NCBI GenBank assembly: GCA_036270315.1
Contig: DATBCS010000148.1
Coordinates: 1-33,150, forward strand
From: Gemmatimonadales bacterium
GTDB lineage: Bacteria > Gemmatimonadota > Gemmatimonadetes > Gemmatimonadales > GWC2-71-9
Reading direction: 5' to 3'
DNA: 33,150 nucleotides
A program made the translations under genes and the position numbers. The notes below the pieces were generated by a model. That model worked only from the letters and a program-made list of their open reading frames with translations. It was not told where the DNA came from and did not search any database. This document shows positions 7,768-33,150 of this stretch, one piece after another (position 1 is the first letter of the stretch; each line of letters opens with the position of its first letter).

Positions 7768-9195
7768 TCAGTAGCGGGGCATGTCCGGATCCACGTTCAC
7801 CGCCCACGCATCGATCCCGCCGCGCAGACTGCGCGCCTTCGCAAATCCCGCCGCCCGCAGGATCTCGAGCGCCCTGAGCGAGCGGGCGCCGTGGTGGCAG
7901 TACGTGACGACTTCGGCGTGATCGTCGAGCTCCCGCAGGCGGGCGGGTAATTCGCCCAATGGAATGAACGTCCCCCCCGGGATGTGCGTGATCTCGTACT
8001 CGTGGGGCTCGCGCACGTCGAGCAGCACGACCGGCCGGCCCTGGTCGAGCTCGCCCTTCAGCTCGAGCGCGCCGACTTCGGCGCCCGCATAGGTCGGCTC
8101 CGCGCCGATCCCGCAGAACGCTTCGTAGTCGATCAGGGCTGTGACGCTCGGATGCGCGCCGCACACCGGACAGGCGGGGTCCTTCTCGAGCGCGAGCTCG
8201 CGGAACTGGAACTTGAGCGCGTCGAACAAGAGCAGCCGTCCCACGAGCGGCTCCCCGGCGCCTACGATCAGCTTGATCGTCTCGAGCGCCTGGATCGAGC
8301 CGATGATCCCGGGCAAGACGCCCAGCACCCCGCCTTCGGCGCATGACGGCACCAGGCCCGGGGGCGGCGGCTCGGCATAGAGACAGCGATAGCAGGGGCC
8401 CCGCCGCGCGTCGAACACGGAGGCCTGGCCCTCGAACCGGAAAATCGAGCCGTACACGTTCGGCTTGCCGAGCAGCACGCAGGCGTCATTCACGAGGTAG
8501 CGGGTGGGGAAGTTATCCGTCCCGTCCGCCACGATGTCGAAGTCGCGGATGATGTCGAGGCCGTTCTCGGAGGTGAGCCGGGTTTCGAACAGCTCGACGT
8601 GGACGTTGGGGTTCAGGTCCTCGAGGCGCGCTCGGGCGGACTCGAGCTTGGGGGTGCCCACCGCCGCCGTGCCGTGGAGGATTTGGCGCTGGAGGTTCGT
8701 CTTGTCGACCACGTCGAAGTCCACGAGCCCGAGCGTGCCCACGCCCGCCGCAGCCAGGTACAGGGCCGCGGGCGAGCCGAGGCCGCCCGCGCCGACGACG
8801 AGTACGCGCGCCGCCTTGAGTTTCCTTTGCCCTTCGACGCCCACATCGGGCAGAATCAGGTGACGCGAGTAGCGGAGGATCTCCTCGTGCGACAACGGGG
8901 GCAGGCCGGTCGTCACGGCCGTCCCGCCCGCGATGCTCGGGATGATCGACACGGTGTCCCCGGGCGCGACGGTGGTCCGCTCGTGCGCCAGCCGGCGGAT
9001 GTCGCGATCGTTCACGTAGACGTTGACGAAGCTGCGCAAGCGCCCATCCGCGGCGAAGAGATGCGGCTTCAGCGCGGCGTGCTCGCCCGTCAGGCGCGCG
9101 AGCAACTCCGCCACGCTCGTGCCCTCGAGCTCGAGCGTGTCACGCCCGCCGACATACGCCCGGAGCGGGCTCGGGATCAAGACCTTCACTGCCAT
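7768..9195 (-). CDS. Fusion protein: CysO-like ubiquitin-fold sulfur carrier (aa 1-91, ending AGG) + MoeZ/MoeB-type E1 adenylyltransferase + C-terminal rhodanese domain
   Basis: The N-terminus, FVNVYVNDRDIRRL...GDTVSIIPSIAGG, resembles M. tuberculosis CysO (FVNIYVNDEDVRF...GDSVTILPAVAGG). Then LSHEEILRYSRHLILPDVGVEGQRKLKAARVLVVGAGGLGSPAALYLAAAGVG (E1 nucleotide loop) and PSCAEGGVLG. The rhodanese active site is YCHHGARS. The end, DPDMPRY, resembles MoeZ. Confidence 0.85.
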   Translation of the reverse strand: MAVKVLIPSPLRAYVGGRDTLELEGTSVAELLARLTGEHAALKPHLFAADGRLRSFVNVYVNDRDIRRLAHERTTVAPGDTVSIIPSIAGGTAVTTGLPPLSHEEILRYSRHLILPDVGVEGQRKLKAARVLVVGAGGLGSPAALYLAAAGVGTLGLVDFDVVDKTNLQRQILHGTAAVGTPKLESARARLEDLNPNVHVELFETRLTSENGLDIIRDFDIVADGTDNFPTRYLVNDACVLLGKPNVYGSIFRFEGQASVFDARRGPCYRCLYAEPPPPGLVPSCAEGGVLGVLPGIIGSIQALETIKLIVGAGEPLVGRLLLFDALKFQFRELALEKDPACPVCGAHPSVTALIDYEAFCGIGAEPTYAGAEVGALELKGELDQGRPVVLLDVREPHEYEITHIPGGTFIPLGELPARLRELDDHAEVVTYCHHGARSLRALEILRAAGFAKARSLRGGIDAWAVNVDPDMPRY

Positions 9196-9638
9196 ACGGC
9201 GTTCCCTTCCTCAATCACCAACGGTTCCACGTCGAACGCCCCGCGGTCGTCCGCCAGCACCCAGCTCGCGAGCTCTCCCGAGCGTCCGCGGGCGACGCCC
9301 ACGATCACGTAGGACAGCCACGGCCAGGCGTGCGCCCGGTCGAACGCGGACGGCGTCGGCGGGTGATCGGGGTGCGAGTGGTACACGCCGAGCACCTCGA
9401 GGCCGTCGCGGTCGAGCTTCTCCTGGGCGCGCCGGAACGCGTCGGGGTCGATCAAGTAGCGGTTGCGGGCCGCGTCGGTGCGCTGGTTCGCGAGGGGCAC
9501 GAGGTGCACGGCCACCTTGCGGCCTCCCTCGCCCTCGTCGATCATGCCGCCGATCAAGCCGCAGGCCTCGGCGGGGTAGTCCGCCTCGCCGTGACGCCGG
9601 ATGGCCGCCACGTGACGCGGGTCGAGCTGCAGGGTCAT
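9186..9638 (-). CDS. mec: JAMM/MPN+ metalloprotease (Mec+-like CysO-cysteine peptidase)
   Basis: EACGLIGG and the YHSHPDHPPTPSAFD JAMM motif (H-x-H-x7-S-x2-D). ATG 9638 overlaps the cysM TGA (ATGA). The stop overlaps the fusion gene start by 10 nt. Confidence 0.85.
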   Translation of the reverse strand: MTLQLDPRHVAAIRRHGEADYPAEACGLIGGMIDEGEGGRKVAVHLVPLANQRTDAARNRYLIDPDAFRRAQEKLDRDGLEVLGVYHSHPDHPPTPSAFDRAHAWPWLSYVIVGVARGRSGELASWVLADDRGAFDVEPLVIEEGNAVWQ

Positions 9639-10666
9639 GACGTCTCCCCCTCCCCCGCCCCCGCCCCCGCCCCCGCGCCGTCGCCTGCGAGGCGGCGCCA
9701 CTCGCTCAAATAGCGGCCCCCGGAGTCTGGGGCGACGACCACGATCACGAGCGGACCGCGCCCCGGCCGGCGCGCGGCGGCGCGGATCCGCTGCGCCGCC
9801 ACGAGCGCCGCCCCCGTGGACCAGCCGAGCAACAGGCCGCGGTGCGCGAGACGCCGGACCGCGGCTTCCGCCGCTTCCGTGGCAACGAACTCGGTCCGGT
9901 CCACGAGGCCGGGATCGTAGATCGGCGGTACGTGGGCGGTCGCGAGGTGTTTCAACCCCTCCAGCCCGTGGAATGGGCCGTCCGGCTGCACGCCGACGAG
10001 TTCGATCCGCGGGTTCAACTCCTTCAAGCGACGGCCCGTGCCGATCAGGGTCCCGGTCGTGCCGAGCCCCGCGACGAAGTGCGTGATCCGACCCTCGGTC
10101 TGGCGCCAGATCTCTTCCGCCGTCGTCGCGTAGTGGGCCCGCGGGTTCGCGGGATGGCTGTACTGATCGGCGTACCAGTACCGCTCAGGCTCCTGGGCCG
10201 CAAGCTCGCGCGCGGCGCGAATCGCGCCGTCCGAGCCCTCGAGCGCGTCGGTGAGGCGTACCTCGGCGCCGTACAGCTCGAGCAACGTCTTCCGCTCGAC
10301 GCTGGCGTTGGCCGGGACGCACACCGTGACGCCGATCCCCGCCGCCGCGCCGAGCATCGCGTAGGCGATCGCCGTGTTGCCGCTCGACGCGTCGAGCAGT
10401 CGTTTACCGGGCAGCGCCCCGCGGGCGATCCCGTCGCGCAGAATGAAGAGCGCCGGCCGGTCCTTCACCGAGCCGCCGGGATTGAGCCACTCGGCCTTGA
10501 GCCACAGCGCCGCCCTCCCGACCTCCTCCTCCGCGGCGGGGAGGGCGAGGAGCGGGGTGTTCCCGACGAGCCCCCACAGGGCCGGCTCGCGGGCGTTCCG
10601 CGGCTCGCTCCCCCGCGTCCGCGGCCGTGCGGGGCGCGGGCTGCGTTTCAGCGTTGCCGCCTTCAC
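9635..10666 (-). CDS. cysM: PLP-dependent cysteine synthase, CysM-like
   Basis: GNTPLL...KAEWLNPGGSVKDRPA (PLP lysine motif), SSGNTAIA and GLGTTGTLIG. GTG 10666 overlaps the rhodanese TGA (GTGA). C-terminal (Gly-Ala)n tail. Confidence 0.85.
   Translation of the reverse strand: MKAATLKRSPRPARPRTRGSEPRNAREPALWGLVGNTPLLALPAAEEEVGRAALWLKAEWLNPGGSVKDRPALFILRDGIARGALPGKRLLDASSGNTAIAYAMLGAAAGIGVTVCVPANASVERKTLLELYGAEVRLTDALEGSDGAIRAARELAAQEPERYWYADQYSHPANPRAHYATTAEEIWRQTEGRITHFVAGLGTTGTLIGTGRRLKELNPRIELVGVQPDGPFHGLEGLKHLATAHVPPIYDPGLVDRTEFVATEAAEAAVRRLAHRGLLLGWSTGAALVAAQRIRAAARRPGRGPLVIVVVAPDSGGRYLSEWRRLAGDGAGAGAGAGEGETS
9646..9674 (-). repeat. Five G5 tracts separated by single nucleotides (sense strand): G-quadruplex-type motif / hexanucleotide repeat
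   Basis: The plus strand reads CCCCC-T-CCCCC-G-CCCCC-G-CCCCC-G-CCCCC. On the mRNA strand this is GGGGGCGGGGGCGGGGGCGGGGGAGGGGG. It encodes the GAGAGAGAGEG tail of CysM and ends 7 nt before the mec ATG. Confidence 0.7.
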
Positions 10667-11514
10667 TCCGCTCCTTTCGCGATGGGCGCCGCGACCAGGT
10701 TGCCCCACTCGGTCCAGGAGCCGTCGTAGTTCTTCACCTGCTTCACGCCCACCAGATACTTGAGCGCGAACCACGTATGACTGGACCGCTCGCCGATGCG
10801 ACAGTACGCGATCACGGCTTTCTTGCCATCGATCACCTTCGCGGTCTGGTAGAGCTTCACGAGCTCCTCGTACGGCTTGAACGTTCCGTCGGAGGCGACG
10901 GCTTGGGCCCAGGGGACGCTCCGCGCTCCGGGGATGTGGCCGCCGCGTTGCGCGGTCTCGGTCATGCCGGGCGGCGCGATCACGTCGCCCAAGTACTCCG
11001 GGGTGGAGCGGACATCGACCAGCGCGACCTTCGCCGACCCGCGCGCCCGCTCGACGTCCAGCCGCTTGGCGCGGATCGCCGCGTTCACCTTCTTCGGCGC
11101 CGGGTAGCGCGTGGGGCGCACGCTCGGCCGCTGGGTGACGAGGGGTCGGCCTTCGGCCACCCACTTGGCCCGCCCCCCGTTCATTAGTTGCGCGGCGGTG
11201 TGGCCGTACAGCTGCAGCAGCCAGAACGCGAATGCCGCGAACCAGTTGTTGTTGTCCCCGTATAGCACGACGGTCGTCTGGGGCGTCACGCCCGCACCGG
11301 ACAGGAGCGCGGCGAACGCCTGCTTGTCGGGGATGTCGCGGCGCACCGGGTCGTTGAGTTGCGACTGCCAGTTCCAGCCCACCGCCCCGGCGACGTGCCC
11401 GCCGTCATACGCCGTGGTGTCCACGTCGACTTCGATCAGCCGGATGTTGGGATCGTTGAGATGCGCCGCCACCCATTCGGTGGAGACGAGCACCTCGGGA
11501 TGTGCGTAGGCCAC
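10663..11514 (-). CDS. Thiosulfate sulfurtransferase (tandem rhodanese, CysA/SseA-like)
   Basis: Collinear with mycobacterial CysA2. Shared segments include VLVSTEWV, NNNWFAAFAFW, GHIPGA and the active site YCRIGERSSHTWF...NYDGSWTEWG. Start moved to GTG 11514 because GGAGG lies 5 nt upstream. The track ORF starts at TTG 11526. Confidence 0.85.
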   Translation of the reverse strand: MAYAHPEVLVSTEWVAAHLNDPNIRLIEVDVDTTAYDGGHVAGAVGWNWQSQLNDPVRRDIPDKQAFAALLSGAGVTPQTTVVLYGDNNNWFAAFAFWLLQLYGHTAAQLMNGGRAKWVAEGRPLVTQRPSVRPTRYPAPKKVNAAIRAKRLDVERARGSAKVALVDVRSTPEYLGDVIAPPGMTETAQRGGHIPGARSVPWAQAVASDGTFKPYEELVKLYQTAKVIDGKKAVIAYCRIGERSSHTWFALKYLVGVKQVKNYDGSWTEWGNLVAAPIAKGAE

Positions 11515-11532
11515 CGTTACCTCCAATCGGGG

Positions 11533-11589: not shown

Positions 11590-12042
11590 TTAGTTCCCGG
11601 CCAGGACCCCGGCGATCTGGTACACTTCCGGCTCGTCGTGTGTCAGGTCGGCGAGCGAGATGCTGGCCAGCAGGTCGTTGATCCGCTGTTCCAGCATTCG
11701 CCAGACCGGCCGGATGCTGCACGACGCGTCCGGACTACATCGCTGGGGGTCGACCGGGTGGAGATCGCAGTTGACTTCGAAGGTGACGTGTTCCGAGGCT
11801 GCGACCACGTCCTTCACGGAGATGGCCTCTGGGGAGCGGGCGAGGTGATAGCCGCCCTTGGCGCCGCGCACTGAATCCACCAACCCGGCGCGCCGCAGCC
11901 GCAACAGGATCTGCTCGACGTAGTCGTGGGGCAGGTGTTCCTGCTCGGCCAGCTCGCGCGCCGCGACCGGCCCCTGCCCCGCGCGCTTCGCGAGGTTCAA
12001 GGAAACGATCAGTCCGTATTCGGCCCAGGTGGTGACGCGCAT
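11590..12042 (-). CDS. Rrf2-family transcriptional regulator (IscR/CymR-like) with three clustered Cys
   Basis: MRVTTWAEYGLIVSLNLAK...ARELAEQEHLPHDYVEQILLRLRRAGLVDSVRGAKGGYHLAR is the Rrf2 winged-helix domain. NCDLHPVDPQRCSPDASC provides a C-x10-C-x5-C cluster. Confidence 0.85.
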   Translation of the reverse strand: MRVTTWAEYGLIVSLNLAKRAGQGPVAARELAEQEHLPHDYVEQILLRLRRAGLVDSVRGAKGGYHLARSPEAISVKDVVAASEHVTFEVNCDLHPVDPQRCSPDASCSIRPVWRMLEQRINDLLASISLADLTHDEPEVYQIAGVLAGN

Positions 12043-15558: not shown

Positions 15559-16101
15559 TCAGGTGGTCGGCGCAACGCGCAGGGCGTCATTGAACCGGTT
15601 GAAGTACTCGGTCATACCGATGACCAGCGTGAGCTCCACGATCTGGCCGTCATCCCACGCGGCGCGCAGCTTCCTGTACAGGTCGTCCGTAACGTCGTGT
15701 CCCGACCGGTGGACCACGTCGGCGTACTCCAACGCGACTCGCCACCCAGGCTCCAGCCGTTCGACCGCCTCACGACCGCCACGGTCCTGGATCGCGTCGA
15801 CCAGCGCCTCGCTCGCACCCTTCTGTCCCGCCAAGACAGTATGGGAGTTGAGTCAGTAGCGGCAGCGATTCAGGTGCGAGATGCGCACCCACAGGAGCTC
15901 CTTCAAGAGCGGCGGCACCGTCCCCTCGTTCATCACGACGCGGAAATGCGCGACGAGGGTGCGCAGGTGATTGGGTCGCAGTGCGACCGTGCGAAACATG
16001 TTGGGGATGTTGCCGCGCTCCTGGAGAAACGTGTCGAAGATGGGCCGCACGTCGGGGGCGGCCTGGTCGGGCGCGAGGGGCGTGATGCGTGGGTCCGTCA
16101 T
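15559..16101 (-). CDS. AhpD-like / carboxymuconolactone-decarboxylase-family protein with in-frame TGA (candidate selenocysteine, codon 83, at 15853..15855)
   Basis: Two track ORFs, 15853..(16101) and 15559..15834, lie in the same frame and are separated by a single TGA. The joined read ELLWVRISHLNRCRY-TGA-LNSHTVLAG fits the AhpD core motif N-x-C-x-Y-C-x3-H. ATG 16101 has GGAGG 6 nt upstream and an ATGA overlap with the upstream gene. Confidence 0.8.
15818..15845 (-). promoter_or_regulatory. Candidate bacterial SECIS hairpin downstream of TGA 15853..15855
   Basis: Hand-folded mRNA: CCC-(A)-U-(A)-CUGUC-[UUGGCGG]-GACAG-(A)-A-GGG. The GG in the apical loop is 22-23 nt after the U of UGA. Confidence 0.4.
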
Positions 16102-17169: not shown

Positions 17170-17734
17170 GGCCGGTGTACACGATGGTGGAATCGGGGAG
17201 CGTAAGCAACTCGCGCTCGATGCTCTTGAGCAGGGTCTCGAAGTCACCGCCGGGCAGATCCGTCCGTCCGATCGAGCCTTGAAACAAGACGTCGCCCGCG
17301 AACGCCACACCCTCCCCCTCGAACACCACGCTGCCCGGCGAATGGCCTGGGGCATGGCGCACCCGAAACGCCAGCTCGCCCAGGCGCAGCACATCGCCCG
17401 CCGCGAGCGGCCGGTCGGGTGCCGGGAGCGGCGCGGCGCTCATTCCGAACGCGACGGCCTGCTCGGGGACATGGTCGTAGAGGAGTCGGTCGGCGGGGTG
17501 GAGGTACACCGGGGCCCCCGTGTCGGCCTTGAGGCGCGCGACGCCCACGACGTGATCCACGTGCGCGTGCGTGAGCCAGATCCCCACCGGCCGCACGCCG
17601 GCGGCGGCCACCTTGTGGGCGATGAGACCCGCTTCCTCCCCGGGGTCGATGATGGCGCACGCCCCGCTCGGCTCGTCGATCACGAGGAAGCAGTTCTCGG
17701 CGAACCGTCCGTTCGGGATGGGGACGACCTTCAC
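17096..17734 (-). CDS. MBL-fold metallo-hydrolase (glyoxalase II / YcbL-like)
   Basis: THAHVDHVVG (H-x-H-x-D-H), HAPGHSPGS, GDVLFQGSIGRTD and GHGPETTVGRERRANPFL. GTG 17734 overlaps the trxB TGA (GTGA). Confidence 0.85.
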   Translation of the reverse strand: MKVVPIPNGRFAENCFLVIDEPSGACAIIDPGEEAGLIAHKVAAAGVRPVGIWLTHAHVDHVVGVARLKADTGAPVYLHPADRLLYDHVPEQAVAFGMSAAPLPAPDRPLAAGDVLRLGELAFRVRHAPGHSPGSVVFEGEGVAFAGDVLFQGSIGRTDLPGGDFETLLKSIERELLTLPDSTIVYTGHGPETTVGRERRANPFLTDASRFA

Positions 17735-18699
17735 GGCGTGACGCCCGCTTTGTCGCGCTCGCGGACGCGCGCCAGGTACTTCTCGACGGCGATCGCCGCG
17801 GTGGTCGCGTCGCCCACGGCAGTGGTGATCTGGCGGGTGAGCTGGCTGCGCACGTCGCCCGCGGCGAACAACCCCGGGATCGACGTCATCATCCGCTCGT
17901 CAGTCACGAAGTACCCGCCGGCGTCGTGTTTGACGTGGCCTGCGACGAGTCCGGTGTTCGGTTGGAAGCCGATGAAAATGAACACGCCGCCCACGACGAG
18001 CGGGGCGCGGGCGCCGCTCACCGTGTCCTCGAGCTCGACGCGGTCCGCGCCGCGCGGGCCTCCCGTGATGGCGGCGACGCGCTTGTTCCACACCAGCTCA
18101 ATCTTGGGGTTCGCGAACGCGCGTTCCTGGAGGATGCGGGAGGCGCGCAGCCGATCGCGCCGGTGCACGATATACACCTTGCTCGCGTAGCGCGTGAGGT
18201 AGTCGGCCTCCTCCACCGCGGCGTCCCCGCCGCCGATGACCGCGAGCACCTCGCCCTTGAAGAACGCGCCGTCGCACACGGCGCAGTACGACACGCCCTT
18301 CCCCGCGTGCTCGAGCTCTCCCGGCACGCCGAGCTTCACGGGCGTCCCGCCGGCGGTGAGGATCACGGCGGGCGCGCGGTACATCCCGCCCCGCGCCGTC
18401 TGCACGTCGAACCGGCCGTCGTCGGCCTTGGCGACGCGCTCCACCGTGTCGGTGAGGATCTCGGCGCCGAACTTCTGCGCGTGCGCGGCCATCCGCTGCG
18501 CCAGCTCCCAGCCCTTGATGCTCTCGAACCCGACGTAGTCTTCGATCAGGTCGGTGTTCAGGAGCTCGCCCCCGGGGGCCCCGCGTTCGATGGTGAGGGC
18601 CTTGAGCATGCCGCGGCCCGCGTACATCGCGGCGCAGAGCCCCGCGGGCCCGGCGCCGACGATGATCACGTCGTATCCGTTACGGCTGGTCTCGGGCAT
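17731..18699 (-). CDS. trxB: Thioredoxin-disulfide reductase
   Basis: YDVIIVGAGPAG (FAD), redox-active CAVCDG, VIGGGDAAVEEA (NADPH) and GLFAAGDV. Start placed at ATG 18699 (MPETSRNGYDV). Confidence 0.9.
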   Translation of the reverse strand: MPETSRNGYDVIIVGAGPAGLCAAMYAGRGMLKALTIERGAPGGELLNTDLIEDYVGFESIKGWELAQRMAAHAQKFGAEILTDTVERVAKADDGRFDVQTARGGMYRAPAVILTAGGTPVKLGVPGELEHAGKGVSYCAVCDGAFFKGEVLAVIGGGDAAVEEADYLTRYASKVYIVHRRDRLRASRILQERAFANPKIELVWNKRVAAITGGPRGADRVELEDTVSGARAPLVVGGVFIFIGFQPNTGLVAGHVKHDAGGYFVTDERMMTSIPGLFAAGDVRSQLTRQITTAVGDATTAAIAVEKYLARVRERDKAGVTP

Positions 18700-19048
18700 C
18701 GCTGCGGAATTCCAATCGCGGGGGGTCACCCTCCCCTGCCAGGGCGCGCGCGAGGCGCGCGCGGAAGCTCTCGGTCTCGAACTCGACATCGGGGCGGGCT
18801 GCGCCCGCCAGCTTCGCGAGCGCTGCCTGCCCCACGATGCGGGCGCCGTGCGCATTGGCACGGCGCTGGTGCAACAATGCCGCCGCCGCCTGAATCAGGC
18901 CTTGCCACACCGCGGCGGCGGCGGGATCGCCGTCCCTAATAATAGAACGCCAGACGGTTTCCAGCGCTTCGTGGGCCTCCCAATAGGCGCCGGCGTTGAA
19001 CAAGTCACGGGCGCGCACCAGGATGGTGCGGCGCTGTTCAGGCGTCAC
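18680..19048 (-). CDS. DUF309-domain protein
   Basis: RARDLFNAGAYWEAHEALETVWR is the DUF309 signature (LFN.g.yfEaHE.lE..W). GTG 19048 overlaps the upstream TGA (GTGA). Confidence 0.7.
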   Translation of the reverse strand: MTPEQRRTILVRARDLFNAGAYWEAHEALETVWRSIIRDGDPAAAAVWQGLIQAAAALLHQRRANAHGARIVGQAALAKLAGAARPDVEFETESFRARLARALAGEGDPPRLEFRSDARDQP

Positions 19049-19825: not shown

Positions 19826-20548
19826 CTATCCGTCTCCGGCAACGGCGAGTACCTGGCCGGTGACGGCGCGCGCCTCGTCGCTCGCGAGGTACAGAACGGC
19901 CGCGACCAGGTCGTCGAGCTCCACCCAGCGCACCTTCGCATCGGTGATCTGGGCGAGGTTGTCGGTGGTCTTCATCGTGCCCGGGGCGACGGCGTTGACC
20001 CGCACGCCGCGCCCCTGGAATTCGCGCGCTAGGGCGCGGGTCAGGCCGGCGACCGCCGCTTTCGCGGCGATGTAGGAGGCCATCTGGGGCTGGGGCCTGA
20101 GCACCGCGACCGAGGCGAAGTTGACGATCGCCCCGCCGCCGCGCTCGAGCAGCGCGGGGAGGGCGGCCTGGGACAGGTAAAACGTGGTCTTCACGTTGAC
20201 CGCGAGTTCGCGCTCGAACTGCTCGGGGGGCGTGCTGAGGACGGGGCCGTAGTACACGAGCCCGCCGGCGACGTTGACCACGACGTCGAGCCCGCCGAAC
20301 TCCTGGCGGGCGGTGGCCACGGCGCGCTGGGCCGCGTCGGGGGTCGTCAAGTCACCTGCGACGCTCCGGACGGTGAAGCCGGCCGCGGTGAACTCGGCGG
20401 CCCGCTCCGCCACCGCCGCCGCGGTGCGATCGGCGATCACGAGGGCCGCCCCGGCGCGCCCGAAGCCGCGCGCCACGGCCTGCCCGATCTGGCCGACGCG
20501 GCCCACCCCCGTGATGAGGGCGACCTTGCCGCGGAAGTCAGGCGGCAC
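19826..20548 (-). CDS. Short-chain dehydrogenase/reductase (SDR)
   Basis: GKVALITGVGRVGQIGQAVA (glycine-rich loop), NVAGG and YIAAKAAV (Y-x3-K). The start is GTG 20548 or GTG 20590. Both overlap the peroxiredoxin 3' end. Confidence 0.8.
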   Translation of the reverse strand: MPPDFRGKVALITGVGRVGQIGQAVARGFGRAGAALVIADRTAAAVAERAAEFTAAGFTVRSVAGDLTTPDAAQRAVATARQEFGGLDVVVNVAGGLVYYGPVLSTPPEQFERELAVNVKTTFYLSQAALPALLERGGGAIVNFASVAVLRPQPQMASYIAAKAAVAGLTRALAREFQGRGVRVNAVAPGTMKTTDNLAQITDAKVRWVELDDLVAAVLYLASDEARAVTGQVLAVAGDG

Positions 20549-20987
20549 GGCGGACGGCCGCGACGATCGCGTCCGGCGGTGGCGCCCCACGCTCGGCGAA
20601 GGCGACGGTGCCGTCGCGCGTGATCAGGTAGACGGAGCGTTGGATGCCCTTGCCGTCGTCCTTGAGCGCGTGGTAGGCGCGCGCGATGGTGCGGTCGGGG
20701 TCGGAGAGGAGGGGAAAGGTGAAGCCCAGTTTCCGGACGTAGCCCGCGTGGGCTTCCACGCTCGCCGGGTTCACGCCGAACGGCTGGATGCCCGCCTTCC
20801 GAAACTGTGCCATCTCGTCGCGCACGGCGGAGAGTTGACGGTTTCAGCCGGGGGTGTTGTTGCCCGGATAGAAGATGAGGGCCACATGCTGCGTCTTGAG
20901 CACGTCGCCGAGCGTGTAGGTCTGGCCGTCCGAGGCCCGGGCGGTGAACGCCGGGGCGATGGTGTCGAGCGGCAGCAGGTCGGTCAT
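20538..20987 (-). CDS. Bcp/PrxQ-type peroxiredoxin with in-frame TGA at the peroxidatic Cys position (candidate selenocysteine, codon 48, at 20844..20846)
   Basis: The frame of track ORF 20538..20825 continues upstream through one TGA. The full read is MTDLLPLDTIAPAFTARASDGQTYTLGDVLKTQHVALIFYPGNNTPG-TGA-NRQLSAVRDEMAQFRKAGIQPFGVN...FPLLSDPD. It is collinear with E. coli Bcp (VLVYFYPKAMTPGCTVQAC...LLSDED). GGAGAGG SD lies before ATG 20987. ATGA overlap with the PHP gene. Confidence 0.85.
20813..20840 (-). promoter_or_regulatory. Candidate (weaker) SECIS-like hairpin downstream of TGA 20844..20846
   Basis: Hand-folded: UCUC-CGC-[CGU]-GCG-(CGAC bulge)-GAGA, with an alternative outer CGUC/GACG pairing. 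The G-U in the apical loop is 22-23 nt after the U of UGA. Confidence 0.3.
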
Positions 20988-21838
20988 GGAGCCTCTCCAG
21001 GGGGCTGTGGGTCGGTGTGCGGCGCCGCGGCGAGGCGGCGCGCCTCGAGCTGCTCGAGCCAGGCGAGCGGGATGTCGAGCCCGCCGAGCGACGCGTGGGC
21101 GTCGCCGAACACGGTGTCGCCGTGCCAGTCCGAGCCGCCGCTCACGGCCAAGCCGAGCCGCTCGGCCAGTGCGGTGAGCCGCCGCTCGGTGGCGGGGGAG
21201 TGGCTCGGATGGCGGACCTCGAGCCCGTCCAGGCCCTGCTCGCGGAACTGGCGGAGTTGGCCCTCGCTCCCGTGGTCGCCCAAGTGGGCCGCCACGGCGA
21301 CGCCGCCCGCCGCGTGCGCCAACGCGGTGACCTGGGCCAAGGTGGGCAGCGGTTTCTCCACGTAGCCGGGTCGCCCCCGCGCCAGGTAGCGCGCGAACGC
21401 GTCGTTGATGTCGGCGCTTGCGCCCCGTTCGACCAGCGCCCGAGCCACGTGGGGCCGGCCCACCGCCCCGCCGTTCGCGGCGCGCACCACATCCTCGACC
21501 GCGATCGGCACGTTCAGCCGCTGCAGCCGCGCGACCATCTGGTCGGCGCGCTGCCGGCGCGCGGCGCGGGTGCCGGTGAGGAACGCTGCGAGCCGGGGGT
21601 CGCCCGGCGCGAGAAAGTAGCCCAGCACGTGCAGCTCACCCCAGGGGGCCCGCACGCTGAACTCGCACCCGGGCACGACCCGCAAGCCCAGGGCGGTGCC
21701 CGCCCGTGTCGCCTCCGGGACGCCCTCCGTGGTGTCGTGATCGGTGAGCGCGATCGCCGCGAGACCTGCCGCCCGCGCGCGCCGCGCCACCTCGGCCGGC
21801 GGGTATTCCCCGTCCGAGGCGGTCGAGTGGCAGTGCAG
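20984..21838 (-). CDS. PHP-domain (polymerase/histidinol-phosphatase-like) metal-dependent phosphoesterase. No canonical start codon upstream of the first metal-binding motif.
   Basis: The frame reads ...PRVDLHCHSTASDGEYPPAEVARRARAAGLAAIALTDHDT...HVLGY...DWHGD. The D-L-H-x-H-S motif lies upstream of the first ATG/GTG/TTG (GTG 21790). Start tentatively set to CTG 21838. Confidence 0.65.
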   Translation of the reverse strand: MHCHSTASDGEYPPAEVARRARAAGLAAIALTDHDTTEGVPEATRAGTALGLRVVPGCEFSVRAPWGELHVLGYFLAPGDPRLAAFLTGTRAARRQRADQMVARLQRLNVPIAVEDVVRAANGGAVGRPHVARALVERGASADINDAFARYLARGRPGYVEKPLPTLAQVTALAHAAGGVAVAAHLGDHGSEGQLRQFREQGLDGLEVRHPSHSPATERRLTALAERLGLAVSGGSDWHGDTVFGDAHASLGGLDIPLAWLEQLEARRLAAAPHTDPQPPGEAP

Positions 21839-21854
21839 GTCAACGCGCGGCGTA

Positions 21855-22169
21855 CTAGGCCTCGGTCGGGGCGGCGAGCGACACCTCGGTCCACAGCTCC
21901 CACGCGTCGGGCGCGTAGCTGCCGAGGGTTTCGAGGCGGCGCTCGAGCTTCAGCTCCTCGGGCAGGCGCGAGGCCTGCGCGCGGTGCGACATCTCGGTCG
22001 GGCTTTCGGAGAATTCGGTGAAAAGCTGCGGGTCCTTGGTGTTGCGGAACACCCAGATGCGTTGACCGCGCGCCTCGGCGAACTGGCACAGCTCCCGCAG
22101 CGTCGCGAGGTAATCCGTCTCGTGCGCCGGCGGCACGCGCACCCGGGCAGCGGTGAGCACCTTGGGCAT
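21855..22169 (-). CDS. Small hypothetical protein (104 aa), possibly ferredoxin-like alpha+beta fold
   Basis: ATG 22169 lies 2 nt after the E2 TAG stop. Sequence is MPKVLTAARVRVPPAHETDYLATLRELCQFAEARGQRIWVFRNTKDPQLFTEFSE... GC3-rich. No family motif recognised. Confidence 0.5.
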   Translation of the reverse strand: MPKVLTAARVRVPPAHETDYLATLRELCQFAEARGQRIWVFRNTKDPQLFTEFSESPTEMSHRAQASRLPEELKLERRLETLGSYAPDAWELWTEVSLAAPTEA

Positions 22170-22171
22170 AG

Positions 22172-25771: not shown

Positions 25772-25987
25772 ATGGCGACGCTCAAGTTACGCGTGAGCGG
25801 GATGACGTGTGGCCACTGTCAGTCGAAGGTCGAGCAAGCACTGCGGCACACGGCGGGTGTGTACTCCGCTTTCGTCGAGCTCGAGACGGGCGAGGCGGAA
25901 GTGGACTTTGACGACGACAGCGTCACGACGGGGCAGCTCGTGTCGGCGGTCGAGCGCGCGGGGTACTCGGCGAAGCTCGCCGGCTAG
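25772..25987 (+). CDS. copZ: Heavy-metal-associated copper chaperone
   Basis: LRVSGMTCGHCQSKVEQAL is the HMA G-M-T-C-x-x-C motif. 71 aa. GGGGAGG SD. Confidence 0.85.
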   Translation: MATLKLRVSGMTCGHCQSKVEQALRHTAGVYSAFVELETGEAEVDFDDDSVTTGQLVSAVERAGYSAKLAG

Positions 25988-26274
25988 TACGCTCCGCGCA
26001 GTTCGTGGGTTGGCTCGACCTGCTGGTGAATCTCCGCCAGGAATCGCTTCGCCAACCGGTCGAGTTCCGACTCGCCCAGTTGATCCGTGCTCACTTCCAC
26101 CAGCGTATAGTGCCCGCCTTCGGCGCGGGCGCCGATCGTCACGCGGCCGAGCGCCCCCGTGTAGGTGCGCCGGCGCGGTGCCTCGTCCGCCGGCGCCAAG
26201 CGCGCGCCGAAAAACGCCTTGGCGTGCGCCAGCACCGCGTCGGGCGTCGCGCTCGTGCGGTGGAAGTATCTCAT
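25984..26274 (-). CDS. Hypothetical 96-aa protein, last gene of the copA operon
   Basis: ATG start. GC3-rich. Lies 40 nt downstream of the copA stop. Its 3' end overlaps the convergent copZ stop by 4 nt. No motif recognised. Confidence 0.5.
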   Translation of the reverse strand: MRYFHRTSATPDAVLAHAKAFFGARLAPADEAPRRRTYTGALGRVTIGARAEGGHYTLVEVSTDQLGESELDRLAKRFLAEIHQQVEPTHELRGAY

Positions 26275-26314
26275 GGCGCCGCCGGCCCCGCCACCGCCCC
26301 TGCCCTGCGCCCGT

Positions 26315-28867
26315 TCATGCGCCCCACGCCGGACGGAACCGGCGCAACCGGAGGCTGTTCAGCACGACGCTCAAGCTCGACCATGCCATCGCCGCGCTCG
26401 CCAACACGGGCGAGAGGAGGATGTGGAAGAACGGGTAGAGCGCGCCGGCGGCGATGGGGATCCCGATCACGTTGTAGACGAAGGCCCAGAACAGATTGAC
26501 CCGGATGATGCGCATCGTGCGACGCGACAGCTGTAGCGCCGTCACGACGCCGCGCAGGTCGCCGCGAATCAGGGTGACGTCGGACGCTTCCATCGCGATA
26601 TCGGTCCCCGTGCCGATCGCGATGCCCACGTCGGCCTGCGCCAGCGCCGGCGCGTCGTTGATCCCGTCGCCCACCATGGCGACGTGCTTCCCCTCGCGCT
26701 GCAGCTGCTTCACCAGCTCGGCTTTCTGCGACGGCAGCACGTCCGCCAGCACGACGTCGATGCCGACCTCGTGCGCCACGGCCTCCGCCCCCCGCTTCGA
26801 GTCTCCCGAGACCATCAGCACCGTGAGTCCCAGCCGTTTGAGGTAGGCGACGGCCTCGGCGCTCGTCGGCTTGAGGGGATCGGAGATCGCGATGACCGCG
26901 TACACGGTATTGTTCACGACCACGATCACCGGCGTGCGGCCCTGGGCGGCGAGCCGGTCCCCGTCCTGCCCCAGGCTCCCGAGCTCGAGGCTCCGCTCGC
27001 GCGCATGGCGCAGCGAGATCACTTCGATGATCCGCCGGTCCACCGTGCCGCGTACGCCGCGTCCCTCCATCACGGCAAACCGGTCCACCGGGAGCAGCTC
27101 CACCTGGCGATCTTTGGCCGCCTTGAGGACCGCCCCCGCGAGCGGGTGTTCGGACTTCTGCTCCACCGAGGCGGCGTACTTCAGCACCTCGGCGGGCGCG
27201 ATGGGGGTGCCGTCGGGGCGTTTGGCGGTCACGATATGGGTGACCATGGGGTGGCCCTCGGTGATCGTGCCGGTCTTGTCGAGCAGTACGGTGCGCACGC
27301 GGGACAGGCGATCGAGCGCCTCGCTGCTGCGGATCAGGATGCCGTGCTCGGCCGCCTTCCCCGTCCCCACGAGGATCGCTGTGGGGGTGGCGAGGCCGAG
27401 CGCGCAGGGACACGCGATCACGAGGACGGTGACCAGCGCGATCGTGGCGAACACGACGGCGGGCGCGGGGCCCACGTCGAACCACACCACGAAGGCGGCG
27501 ATGGCGAGCGCCAGCACGATGGGAACGAACACGCCGGCCACCTGGTCGGCGAGCCGCTGGATCGGGGCCTTGGTCGCCTGCGCGTCCTCGACGAGCTCGA
27601 CGATCTGGCCCAGGGCGGAGTCCTTGCCGACGCGCGTGGCGCGGAACGTGATGCTCCCGGTGGTGTTGAGCGTCGCGCCGATCACTTCGTCGCCTGGGCG
27701 CTTCGCGACCGGGAGCGGCTCCCCGGTGAGCATGGACTCGTCCACGGCGGCGGCCCCTTCGGTCACGACGCCGTCCACGGGAACCTTCTCGCCCGGCTTG
27801 ACGATCACGTGATCGCCCGGCGTGACCGCCTCGACCGCGAGCTCGATCTCCTTGCCATCGCGCAGCACATGCGCCGTCTTCGGCTTGAGGGCCGCGAGCC
27901 GGCGGATCGCTTCCGAGGTGCGGCTCTTGGCCCGGGCTTCGAGCAAGCGCCCGAGGAGAATGAGGGCGAGGATGGCGGACACGGCTTCGTAATAGACGTC
28001 GGCGGGCCGGCCGGCGGCGGCCCACACGCCCGGGGCGACGGTGGCCCCGAGCGAGTAGAGGTAGGCGGCGAGGGTGCCCACGCCGATCAGCGTGTTCATG
28101 TCGGCGGTGCGGTGCTTGAACCCGCTCCACATCCCCCGGTAGAACTGGGCCCCGCACCACACCACCACGGGCAACGTCACGACAGCGAGCGCGACCTTCA
28201 ACCAGCGCGGGTCGATCGCCGTCCGCCCGCCGAGCGCCTCCTCGACCCGCAGGGCGAGCGGCATGAGCAGCCGGCCCAGCAGGTCGACCTGTTTCAGGGT
28301 GTCGTCGGGTTCCCGGCCCATGAGGAGCATGGCCCCGAGCATGCTCACCACCGTGGCCGCGGCGGCGAGGGCGAACTTCCGGCTCAGGGTGCGGACTTCG
28401 CGCTCGCGCGCCAGGCGCTCGCGCTCGACGGGATCCTCGGTGGGAATCGGCGCGGCCACCTGGAACCCGGCCGCGCGAACGGCGCGTTCCAGCGCGTCGG
28501 CCGTCGTGGCGCCGGGGATGTAGTCCACGGTGATGGTCTCGGTCGCCTGGTTGGCGGCGGCGCGGATCACGCCGTTCACCCGGCGCAGCGCCTGCTCGAG
28601 CGGCACGACGCTCGGCGCGTAGTGCAACTGCTCCACGGCGAACGTGACGCTCGCCTTGCCGCAGTCGTAGCCGGCGGCGCGAATCGTCTTGATCAGTTCG
28701 GCAACATGGGTCTGGGCGTCGTCGTAGTCGACCGCGGCCTTGCCGGTGGCGTAGTTGACGGTCGCGGCGCCGACGCCCGTGGCGCTGCCCAGCGCCTCCT
28801 GGACCGTCGCCGCGCAGGACGCGCAACTCATGCCCTCGATCGGGAGGATGGTGCGCGCCTTACTCAT
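26315..28867 (-). CDS. copA: Copper-translocating P1B-type ATPase
   Basis: N-terminal [14 protein letters not shown], a second HMA-like domain lacking C-x-x-C, TM CPC motif ([11 protein letters not shown]), DKTGTITEG, and [10 protein letters not shown]. Confidence 0.92.
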
Positions 28868-29285
28868 GGAACTTGTGGGGTGAGGCCGAGGGTTTGCGAT
28901 CGGCCGTGGCGGGCTCCACGACGAGCAGGCCCTTCAGCATGTTCATGCCGCAGCGGAACGCGAACTCGCCGGCGGCCTCGGGGGTGAACGCGATCGCGGT
29001 CGTTTGGAACGCGGGCAGCACGGCGTCGATCCCGAACGCCTCGAACACGACGCGCTCGGAGCAGTCGGCGGTCTCGTCGCGGTAGAACAGCAGCCGGACC
29101 GGCCGGCCGGCTTGCACCACGATCGTGTCGGGGGTGTAGCCGCCCTTCACGGTGACCCGCACCTCCTGCACGCCGGCCGTCTGGGTCGCCGCGGTCGCGG
29201 GCCCGGTCGCGAACAGGAAGTACCACAGCACCCACGCGATGGCGCCGAGACCGGCGGCGGTGACGACGTACTGCGAGACGCTCAC
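28860..29285 (-). CDS. Membrane-anchored cupredoxin-like domain protein (copA-associated)
   Basis: TM helix [19 protein letters not shown], then [40 protein letters not shown]...[13 protein letters not shown] 29285 overlaps the ino1 TGA (GTGA). The stop overlaps the copA start by 8 nt. Confidence 0.7.
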
Positions 29286-30607
29286 GCCTTCTCGTAGTAC
29301 TCGATGCCGAGGTGAGTGATCTGTTCTTCGCCCTTGAGCCACCGCAAAGTGTTCTTGAGCTTCGTCTGCTGGATGAACAGGTCGTGTTCAGGGTAGAGAC
29401 CGGGGGCCGCCTGCGGGCTCTTGAAGTAGAAGGAGAGCCACTCCTGGATCCCCGAGAGCCGGGCCCGCTGCGCCAAGTCGAAGAACAGCGCGAGGTCGAG
29501 CACGATGGGCGCCGCCAGGATCGAGTCGCGGCAGAGGAAGTCTACTTTGATCTGCATCGGATAGCCGAGCCATCCGAAGATGTCGATGTTGTCCCAGCCC
29601 TCTTTGTTGTCGCCGCGCGGCGGGTAGTAATTGATGCGCACCTTGTGGAACACGTTCCCGTACAGCTCGGGATACTGGTCCGGCTGGAGGATGTACTCCA
29701 GCACGCCAAGCTTCGACTCTTCCTTCGTCTTGAACGATTCGGGGTCGTCGAGCACCTCGCCGTCGCGATTGCCGAGGATGTTGGTGGAGTACCAGCCCGC
29801 GAGGCCGAGCATGCGCGCCTTGAAGGCGGGCGCGAGCACGGTCTTCATCATGGTCTGGCCGGTCTTGAAATCCTTGCCCCCGATCGGGAGCTGGCGCTCT
29901 TCCGCCAGGCGCTCGAGCGCCGGGATATCGACCGTGAGGTTCGGCGCCCCGTTCGCGAAGGGGATGCCTTCCATCAGGGCCGCGTACGCGTAGAGCATCG
30001 ACGGCGCGATGGCGGGATCGTTCTGGTCCATCGCCTGCTCGAACGCGCGGAGATTCTGGTGCGCCGGGCCCGGCGTCAGGAACACTTCGGTCGAGGCGGC
30101 CCAGATCATCACCAGCCGCTCGGCGCCCGAGCGTTGGCGGAACTCGCGGATGTCCTGCCGCAGCTGCTCGGCGAGCTCGCGCTTGGTCTTCCCCGTCTTG
30201 ACGTTGGTCCCGCTCAGCCGCTTCACGTAGTGCTGATCGAACGCGGCGGGGAGCGGGCGGATGGCCTTGAGGAAATCGGCGACGGGCTCGACGTGGTGGG
30301 GTTCGAGCACGCCGGCCTTCTTGGCCGCGGTGTAGGCGTCGTCCGGAATCGGATCCCAGGCCGCGAACACGAGGTCCGTGAGCTGGGCGAGCGGCAGGAA
30401 CTCCTTGATCTTTGGCGCGCGTCGCTCGGTGCGCTTGCCGAGGCGGATCGTGCCCATTTGCGTGAGCGACCCGATGGGCAGGGCGGTGCCGCGCCGCACG
30501 TGCTCGACGCCGGCGATGAAGGTGGTGGACACTGCCCCCAGCCCCACGAGCATCACCCCCAACGTCCCCTTGGCGGGCGCGATGTCCCGGCCGGCCTTCT
30601 GTGGCAC
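29282..30607 (-). CDS. ino1: myo-Inositol-1-phosphate synthase
   Basis: LVGLGAVSTTFIAGVEH, IWAASTE, NGAPN, PIGGKDFKTGQT and STNILGNRDG are MIPS family segments. GTG 30607 lies 2 nt after the upstream TAA (ATG 30544 is an alternative). Confidence 0.85.
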   Translation of the reverse strand: MPQKAGRDIAPAKGTLGVMLVGLGAVSTTFIAGVEHVRRGTALPIGSLTQMGTIRLGKRTERRAPKIKEFLPLAQLTDLVFAAWDPIPDDAYTAAKKAGVLEPHHVEPVADFLKAIRPLPAAFDQHYVKRLSGTNVKTGKTKRELAEQLRQDIREFRQRSGAERLVMIWAASTEVFLTPGPAHQNLRAFEQAMDQNDPAIAPSMLYAYAALMEGIPFANGAPNLTVDIPALERLAEERQLPIGGKDFKTGQTMMKTVLAPAFKARMLGLAGWYSTNILGNRDGEVLDDPESFKTKEESKLGVLEYILQPDQYPELYGNVFHKVRINYYPPRGDNKEGWDNIDIFGWLGYPMQIKVDFLCRDSILAAPIVLDLALFFDLAQRARLSGIQEWLSFYFKSPQAAPGLYPEHDLFIQQTKLKNTLRWLKGEEQITHLGIEYYEKA

Positions 30608-32428: not shown

Positions 32429-33150
32429 TCAGTAGAGCAGGTACTGGGCGCGCATCCGGCGGAACCGCTCGAGCCCCGGCTGCCACGCCCGCACGATGGC
32501 CGCCGCGGTCGTCCCGCGGAGAATCGCCCGGCGCAGCGCCGGGCCGGCCGCGAGCCCGTCGAAACGCGGCGCGTTGAAGCGCAGCGAATCGCGTTGCGCC
32601 AGATGGAGCGCGGTGAGCAGGGCGACCGCCGTCGCGGTGGGATCATAGCGCCGCCGGTCCGTCACGCGCAGCCGCACCCCGCGGAGCGGGACGCCGTCGT
32701 ACTTCCCGTCCGTGGGCGTCTGGGGGGTGAATATCGTCGCCGAGAGCTCAACGCCCGCGAGCAGGTGTCCCGGGCCCCGGCCAGCGTCCGCAGGCGGGCC
32801 AGCACGGCGGCGGTGTCGAACCACGGCGCGCCGATCACCTGGAATGCGACGCCCGTGCCGCGCCCCACCGACAGGTTCGTGCCTTCGAAGAGACAGGTGC
32901 CGGGGTAGTGGAGCGCGCTTTCCAGGTCGGGCATGTTGGGCGAAGGGCGCACCCAGCGGAGCCCGGTCGCGTCGTAGTCGACTGCCCGCCGCCATCCGGC
33001 CGCGGGGACCACGGTGAGGTTGGCGTCGACCTTGAGCGCCGCGGCGGCGAGCCGGACCAGTTCGCCGAGCGTGAGGCCGTGGCGCATCGGGACCGGCAGG
33101 AACCCGACGAACTGCGTATCAGGGTCGGCGATCCGGTCACGCACGTCTCC
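32429..33150 (-). pseudogene. DUF1343-family (NamZ-like exo-N-acetylmuramidase) gene, 3' two-thirds, interrupted by a frameshift near 32765..32795. The 5' end lies beyond the right edge.
   Basis: The upstream frame gives ...PSPNMPDLESALHYPGTCLFEGTNLSVGRGTGVAFQVIGAPWFDTAAVLARLRTLAG. The family continuation GHLLAGVELSATIFTPQTPTDGKYDGVPLRGVRLRVTDRRRYDP...RMRAQYLLY is in a different frame (track ORF 32429..32995). The switch occurs in a GGCCGGGGCCCGGG run. Confidence 0.65.

Follow-up and report, generated by a model that had tools for sequence, protein, structure and literature searches.

A predicted selenocysteine-containing peroxiredoxin of the BCP/PrxQ type, conserved with a putative SECIS element in soil Gemmatimonadales

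Peroxiredoxins in which selenocysteine (Sec) replaces the peroxidatic cysteine form an established family (PF00578 with a TxxU motif; PMC13188914; PMC1794560), the prototype being PrxU of Eubacterium acidaminophilum (Sohling et al., 2001, as cited in PMC13188914). They are experimentally established in that organism and rank seventh among bacterial selenoprotein families in a survey of 5,200 genomes, while AhpD-like proteins with a CxxU motif are recognised as predicted selenoproteins (PMC13188914; PMC1794560; PMC5029168). In metagenomes, genes for Prx-like and AhpD-like selenoproteins cluster in operons, and aerobic bacteria are described as rarely retaining selenoproteins (PMC13188914). Here we analyse a 33,150-nucleotide stretch of DNA (hereafter ‘the window’; 71% G+C) from a Gemmatimonadales bacterium (assembly GCA_036270315.1, contig DATBCS010000148.1, positions 1 to 33,150), the minus strand of which very probably encodes, at 20987..20538, a 148-residue peroxiredoxin of the BCP/PrxQ type with UGA-encoded Sec at its peroxidatic codon, codon 48. 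That such enzymes are a known class was part of the original prediction made from the window's letters, and the literature above agrees.

The open reading frame (ORF) listing of the window shows only a 95-aa piece of this gene (20538..20825). The original prediction read the same frame upstream through one TGA and obtained 149 codons, and translation of 20987..20538 bears this out, with 148 residues, a stop and a single internal stop. The latter (20846..20844, minus strand) is codon 48, a predicted Sec at the peroxidatic position of P41-x-x-x-T45-x-x-U48; the peptide reaching it is TQHVALIFYPGNNTPG-X-NR, where X is the residue at UGA48. With Cys put in place of the stop, the Pfam AhpC-TSA profile (PF00578) matches residues 10–130, spanning the TGA (E = 1.2e-30; 106.4 bits vs a gathering cut-off of 26), and is covered over positions 4–123 of its 124, placing the protein among the peroxiredoxins. 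The top matches among solved structures are of BCP type (5enu, E = 2e-19; the Xanthomonas campestris BCP 5iox/3gkk, ~2e-16). In alignments to 5enu and 5iox the TGA falls, as had been proposed, on the peroxidatic Cys, that of TPGC in the motif YPxxxTPGC, and R117 aligns with the catalytic Arg, the Arg of GIERS in both structures. T45, P46, G47, C48 and R117 are all invariant columns in 28 Cys-form homologs, and the universal peroxiredoxin active site is complete (P41, T45, U48 and R117).

The initiation region also reads as first proposed. A Shine-Dalgarno-like GGAGAGG (20998..20992, minus strand) lies 4 nt 5′ of the ATG, and the ATG itself (20987..20985) overlaps the TGA stop (20986..20984) of an upstream PHP-domain gene in the form ATGA. 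Elsewhere in the window UGA is an ordinary stop codon, indeed the commonest, terminating 15 of the 23 confident genes, and it is therefore not globally reassigned in this genome.

The window protein resembles PrxU in its AhpC/TSA fold, in the replacement of the peroxidatic Cys of PxxxTxxC by UGA, in a selenocysteine insertion sequence (SECIS) hairpin, here predicted, just 3′ of the UGA, and in the common occurrence of Cys-form homologs. It is not a PrxU equivalog, however (NF040737, 37.4 bits vs 270), and whereas PrxU is found in strict anaerobes, the window protein belongs to the BCP/PrxQ branch, with 148 residues and no other Cys, in soil Gemmatimonadales. Cys-type BCP/PrxQ proteins (Escherichia coli Bcp, X. 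campestris BCP 3gkk/5iox and the Burkholderia AhpC/TSA protein 5enu) align collinearly with it for ~135 residues, with the FYPxxxTPG-C/U motif and the catalytic Arg in common. Its best NCBIfam matches are likewise Bcp and PrxQ, although the equivalog cut-offs are not reached (NF006960 Bcp, 62.7 vs 140; NF053650 PrxQ, 57.1 vs 260). Cys-type BCPs differ in possessing a resolving Cys in addition to the peroxidatic one. The window protein contains no Cys at all, and both known BCP resolving positions are substituted, the +5 position in alpha-2 by S53 and the alpha-3 position (Cys84 in X. campestris BCP) by V84, so that the resolving Cys expected of a BCP/PrxQ member at +5 or in alpha-3 is missing and a 1-Cys-type, here 1-Sec, mechanism is predicted. 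The predicted protein fits best within the known Sec-peroxiredoxin kind, as a new 1-Sec member from the BCP branch.

The distribution of the TGA among relatives is the first line of support for recoding. In a protein search the gene was assigned to Gemmatimonadota, and the matches listed comprised two sorts of relatives: full-length Cys forms (147–152 aa, 56–74% identical to the window protein) and C-terminal fragments (88–100 aa, 75–91% identical), the latter being TGA forms as gene callers see them. Such fragments account for ~30 of the best 120 protein clusters (P0079, P0085, P0090, P0094–P0111 and P0113–P0120), under names such as ‘hypothetical protein’, ‘redoxin domain-containing protein, partial’ and ‘peroxiredoxin Q/BCP’, and the truncation is systematic in NCBI and JGI gene calls. 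A scan at the DNA level, taking one genome per GTDB species, gave 67 Gemmatimonadota loci whose proteins are 46–89% identical to that of the window. The aligned codon is TGA in 66 of these loci and TGC in the remaining one. A second scan was seeded with an alignment of Cys forms, and despite this the best 80 soil-metagenome loci comprise 78 with TGA and 2 with TGC. The original prediction had preferred recoding to a chance nonsense mutation, and these counts sustain that preference.

The sequences on either side of the TGA behave as parts of one gene. Within the first 143 codons, an in-frame stop occurs once and only once in each of the 136 distinct sequences, of which 127 start with ATG. The entropies of codon positions 1/2/3 are 0.59/0.50/1.22 for codons 2–47 and 0.56/0.48/1.18 for codons 59–143, a likeness which shows that the two halves evolve as a single coding gene and experience the same purifying selection. 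In Cys-form relatives the gene is single and uninterrupted, and aligning these, a check that had been proposed at the outset, confirms the U/C pairing at codon 48. The in-frame UGA thus lies on a conserved redox Cys of homologs, and orthologs elsewhere that share it keep coding sequence on both flanks.

The second line of support is a block of RNA-level constraint 3′ of the UGA. Twenty-four nucleotides (CAACUCUCCGCCGUGCGCGAYGAG; 20837..20814, minus strand), which occupy +10..+33 when the U of UGA is taken as +1, do not change across 114 distinct sequences, save at position 30 (C or U), which is predicted to be unpaired. Where the amino acid of a column is conserved, codons 49–58 show a synonymous codon entropy of 0.19 bits, the lowest window of the gene, against 1.08 elsewhere (Mann–Whitney p = 3e-5). 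In all 62 genome-derived Sec forms Leu52, Ser53, Ala54, Val55 and Arg56 each use one codon, while in the rest of the gene any Leu, Ala, Gly or Pro that is itself invariant is encoded by three to six codons. Gln51 is the rare codon CAA in 58 of these 62 (Gln68 and Gln116 are CAG), and among the 114 distinct sequences only 6 have G as its third base. The six Cys-form genes, by contrast, have CAG for Gln51 in 6/6 and depart from the Sec-form consensus at 2–8 positions within +4..+33, while encoding a near-identical peptide (C-NRQLS-x-x-RD). Because the freeze is absent from Cys forms with nearly the same peptide, it is a constraint on the RNA that is tied to the UGA, and no effect of protein sequence or codon bias.

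One Cys-form lineage (L163 and L164, with the same protein) retains much of this element. It has TGT at the catalytic codon (L163 position 10142) followed by a near-intact remnant of the predicted SECIS, in which CAA to CAG is the only change within +4..+31, a pattern suggestive of a recent change from Sec to Cys.

When folded, the block forms a hairpin of 8 bp with two 3′-side bulges and the apical loop CGU (C21 G22 U23), running from C13 to G33 (20834..20814, minus strand); it can also fold with two helices of 3 bp and a CGUGC loop. The whole predicted SECIS region is 47 nt long (20846..20800, minus strand) and has a minimum free energy (MFE) of −15.8 kcal/mol with a lower stem that takes in the UGA. 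A hairpin folded by hand in the original prediction, with G-U in its loop about 22 nt after the UGA, is present as G22 U23, one nucleotide off the place of G23 U24 in the loop of E. coli fdhF. Like the fdhF element and the bSECISearch model, this is a stem-loop within coding sequence directly after the UGA whose small loop contains G followed by U, with 17-nt spacing, an 8-bp upper stem and bulged residues on the 3′ side. Its primary sequence is unrelated to that of fdhF, and a 24-nt core frozen over a whole order is unusually strict among bacterial SECIS elements. Published criteria for bacterial SECIS elements (bSECIS) call for a loop of 3–9 nt with G within its first two positions followed by G or U, a stem of 4–16 bp, a UGA-to-loop spacing of 16–37 nt and an MFE of at most −7.5 kcal/mol (PMC13188914), and the hairpin lies within all of them (3-nt CGU loop, 8-bp stem, 17-nt spacing, −15.8 kcal/mol). 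The one core position that does vary, 30, falls on a predicted bulge, which agrees with the fold but is weak evidence.

The third line of support comes from a second gene, 5 kb away, which the original prediction had said shows the same pattern. It is an AhpD/CMD-like gene of 180 codons (16101..15559, minus strand), a predicted selenoprotein with the motif C80-x-x-U83, in which UGA is codon 83 (15855..15853), the second Cys position of CxxC (NRCRY-U-LNSH); its ATG overlaps the stop of the LPG-synthase-TM gene 5′ of it, again as ATGA. A strict scan of the window for in-frame TGAs with coding signal on both sides returned only the peroxiredoxin site and one real stop–start junction, and overlooked this second site, where G+C at third codon positions is lower. 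The protein matches Pfam CMD (E = 7.4e-10; 39.1 bits vs a cut-off of 23) and TIGR00778 (39.9 vs 27.8), and falls below cut-off for NF053654 ‘YciW-related (seleno)protein’ and TIGR01926 (78 vs 310 and 65.9 vs 81.8). TGA stands at the CxxU codon in 18 loci with 44–86% identity to the window copy; Cys-form genomes have TGC.

Here the pairing itself is supported by covariation. The predicted SECIS hairpin of the AhpD-like gene (15839..15823, minus strand) has a 7-bp stem (+17..+23 with +27..+33) and the loop GGC, and across 17 distinct sequences 100% of cells are paired, as against 37–67% in slid controls. Compensatory changes, each from U-A to C-G, occur in three of the seven pairs, G-U wobbles occur as well, the covariation score is reached by none of 500 shuffles, and the folding energy stands apart from that of shuffles (z = −3.28). 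In some cases the compensatory change also replaces an amino acid (V to A, Q to R), so that pairing is kept at a cost to the protein sequence. Cys-form copies have no hairpin. The gene combines the CMD core, a UGA at the second Cys and a hairpin, features it shares with the described AhpD-like CxxU selenoproteins (TIGR01926, PF02627, NF053654), from which it differs in scoring under the NCBIfam cut-offs and in standing beside the peroxiredoxin cluster in only about one third of the loci with sufficient flank.

Where both genes are present their states agree: 23 of 23 loci are concordant, 18 with TGA in both and five with Cys in both, the latter from three independent genomes, with no mixed locus. 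Such full concordance is what a genome-level Sec-decoding trait predicts. In the L163/L164 lineage the AhpD-like gene has TGC (L163 position 15961) and its hairpin is destroyed, and the two genes together look like a recent joint Sec-to-Cys conversion, as would be expected after loss of Sec decoding.

We strongly favour a selenoprotein because the TGA is kept at the catalytic codon order-wide between flanks under the same purifying selection, because an invariant block specific to Sec forms and with SECIS geometry directly follows the UGA, and because the AhpD-like neighbour repeats the pattern with a covarying hairpin and a concordant Sec/Cys state. The idea that the TGA reflects a pseudogene, a nonsense mutation that arose by chance, or a TGC misread in sequencing or assembly could draw on the apparent frameshift in the NamZ gene of the window (see below), a sign that the assembly or the genome is not flawless. 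Yet the same TGA recurs in 144 independent assemblies from different studies, no secondary disabling mutations accompany the single stop in any of the 136 distinct sequences, purifying selection acts on both flanks, and an error cannot yield a synonymous freeze downstream of itself; conserved TGA, single stop, two-sided selection and freeze together exclude these explanations, to which we give next to no probability. Nor do we give much credence to a split gene, highly improbable in our estimate, in which translation would terminate at UGA48 and a C-terminal protein would start separately, for instance at GTG 20825, the invariant block being a re-initiation signal. Public annotations do list C-terminal fragments of 91–100 aa in many genomes and there is a GTG 7 codons after the TGA, but that GTG is Val55, within the hairpin loop and with no Shine-Dalgarno sequence before it, and the stop sits exactly on the catalytic codon. 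Moreover, the split would leave neither fragment with the full active site (T45 and U48 before it, R117 after it), the 47 codons ahead of the stop are conserved at the protein level, with a selection signature like that of the rest, and the Cys-form relatives are uninterrupted.

An alternative of a different kind accepts the recoding and questions the residue. UGA might be decoded through the SECIS-like hairpin as something other than Sec, either by a SelB-like factor with a Cys-charged, Sec-shaped tRNA or by near-cognate read-through with tRNA-Cys or tRNA-Trp; a Sec-shaped tRNA charged with Cys has reportedly been proposed for some bacteria by Mukai and co-workers. The comparative data (TGA, hairpin and two-gene concordance) show recoding and do not say which residue enters, and to this extent they suit such a reading. 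We nevertheless consider it very improbable, since both families have established selenoproteins with Sec/Cys pairs at these exact positions, both hairpins suit the SelB-type bSECIS model, and Cys inserted at UGA would offer no gain over a TGC codon, which relatives have readily adopted.

Several points weigh against Sec at codon 48, a residue predicted from sequence. Neither the window nor the 165 loci (~20 kb each around the peroxiredoxin gene) contain selA, selB, selD or tRNA-Sec: tblastn with E. coli SelA, SelB and SelD queries gave no match in the 165 loci, and ARAGORN found only tRNA-Leu, tRNA-Val and tRNA-Gly in the window and all loci. With ~20 kb covered per locus, missing sel genes are not evidence of absence. 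A literature search found no paper on selenoproteins or Sec use in Gemmatimonadota. The fold check suggested with the original prediction did find the hairpin, but its energy is no better than that of shuffled sequences (z = −0.39, +0.42 and −1.12) in this 71% G+C DNA, so that its significance comes from the comparative data and not from the fold. Covariation gives no support for the exact upper-stem pairing in the 114 distinct sequences, because the paired bases never vary; the register of the lower stem varies between species, with none conserved; and Rfam, at gathering and at permissive thresholds, matched no bacterial SECIS family.

If the peroxiredoxin is a selenoprotein, as we think very probable, expression and catalysis might proceed as follows, with Sec insertion, SelB binding, the identity of the reductant and peroxidase activity all inferred from sequence comparison. 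The hairpin at +13..+33 after the UGA, with its apical loop CGU, would act as a bacterial SECIS, recruiting SelB-GTP-Sec-tRNA(Sec) to the ribosome, where Sec would be inserted and termination avoided; were selenium or the Sec machinery missing, translation would end after 47 residues. The selenolate of U48, activated by T45 and R117, would attack peroxides. As the protein has no other Cys, the resulting selenenic acid would have to be reduced externally, by a thiol system that is most likely thioredoxin and the linked thioredoxin reductase (TrxR).

The candidate reductase lies at 18861..17731 on the minus strand (TIGR01292, 350.5 bits vs 343); its true start is probably internal, as the family match begins at residue 63. 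A TrxR gene is found within 6.5 kb downstream of the peroxiredoxin gene in 54/54 loci. In a divergent Gemmatimonadota clade (L053, L055–L057, L060, L062, L063 and L066) it follows the Sec-peroxiredoxin gene directly, some 300 to 500 nt past the Sec codon, without the short-chain dehydrogenase/reductase (SDR) gene that otherwise stands between them, an adjacency that strengthens the functional link. The AhpD-like gene, in turn, accompanies the peroxiredoxin cluster in only about a third of those loci whose flanks are long enough, and in view of the 54/54 for TrxR we have downgraded the AhpD-like protein as an obligatory partner of the peroxiredoxin.

A broader proposal, which we regard as unlikely, is that selenium-dependent peroxide defence is a core, vertically inherited trait of this whole soil order. 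The 1-Sec BCP would always be linked to TrxR and to an operon for a lipoyl-E2 2-oxoacid dehydrogenase, with a CxxU AhpD-like partner in one third of lineages, and the proteins would form a selenium-based relay analogous to AhpC-AhpD-DlaT-Lpd of Mycobacterium tuberculosis; the SECIS would be frozen order-wide, and both genes would turn to Cys together on loss of Sec decoding. The Gemmatimonadales are presumably aerobic soil bacteria, and given the stated rarity of selenoproteins in aerobes the order-wide conservation is mildly notable. If the proposal were true, a core selenium-defence trait would oppose the view that aerobes rarely retain selenoproteins (PMC13188914).

The known principles of Sec decoding are unchanged by the peroxiredoxin, and its main interest lies in systematic mis-annotation, an unusually frozen SECIS candidate and natural Sec/Cys pairs in an abundant soil order. 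Public gene calls for it are systematically truncated across Gemmatimonadota, so that metabolic reconstructions of this abundant soil phylum lack what is predicted to be an active antioxidant enzyme. The gene is also a sign of selenium dependence in a lineage in which our literature search found no selenoprotein reports. Close Sec and Cys forms side by side offer a natural experiment on keeping or replacing Sec at a peroxidatic site, and the frozen element of 24 nt would lend itself well to working out which features are recognised by a SelB from outside the enterobacteria.

The surrounding gene order is strongly conserved, and the window is collinear with a Gemmatimonadales metagenome-assembled genome (L001) over 10.6 kb at ~89.6% nucleotide identity. 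It runs from the E1alpha, E1beta and E2 genes of a 2-oxoacid dehydrogenase through the PHP phosphoesterase, the peroxiredoxin and the SDR to, further on, TrxR, a metallo-beta-lactamase-fold protein, the LPG-synthase-TM protein, the AhpD-like protein and fumarase. The PHP-domain phosphoesterase gene (21790..20984, minus strand; Pfam PHP), translationally coupled to the peroxiredoxin gene, is directly upstream of it in 127/127 loci, and NCBIfam models for nucleoside bisphosphate phosphatase and RNase RNM match its product under their cut-offs. The E2 gene is upstream of the peroxiredoxin gene in 58/58 loci. Between the E2 and PHP genes, relatives carry two conserved small ORFs of 86–93 aa with no Pfam match (L161 8606–9138; L163 8590–9152; L165 8600–9126); the matching interval of the window is at about 21800–22170.

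Other parts of the window carry features of separate interest. A NamZ (exo-beta-N-acetylmuramidase) gene at 32429–33144 on the minus strand is split over two frames, NamZ_N and NamZ_C positions 2–44 lying in one and NamZ_C 46–152 in another. In the relative L161 it is a single gene of 432 aa, and the split looks like a frameshift, either a pseudogene or an assembly indel. A single ORF at 7768–9195 (minus strand) encodes a triple fusion of ThiS, ThiF/MoeB and rhodanese, and its neighbours encode a PALP (cysteine-synthase-like) protein (9635–11164), a double-rhodanese protein (10663–11526) and an Rrf2 regulator (11590–12042); L163 also has a JAB-domain gene beside its ThiS-ThiF/MoeB-rhodanese region. 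This region resembles a sulfur-carrier-protein (CysO/MoeZ-type) thiocarboxylate pathway, and MoeB is among the predicted selenoprotein families (PMC13188914). Finally, a copper-handling cluster at 25984–29342 (minus strand), kept in some relatives (L163), comprises a P-type ATPase with an HMA domain (26315–28867), a cupredoxin-like protein (28860–29342) and a small conserved ORF (25984–26274).

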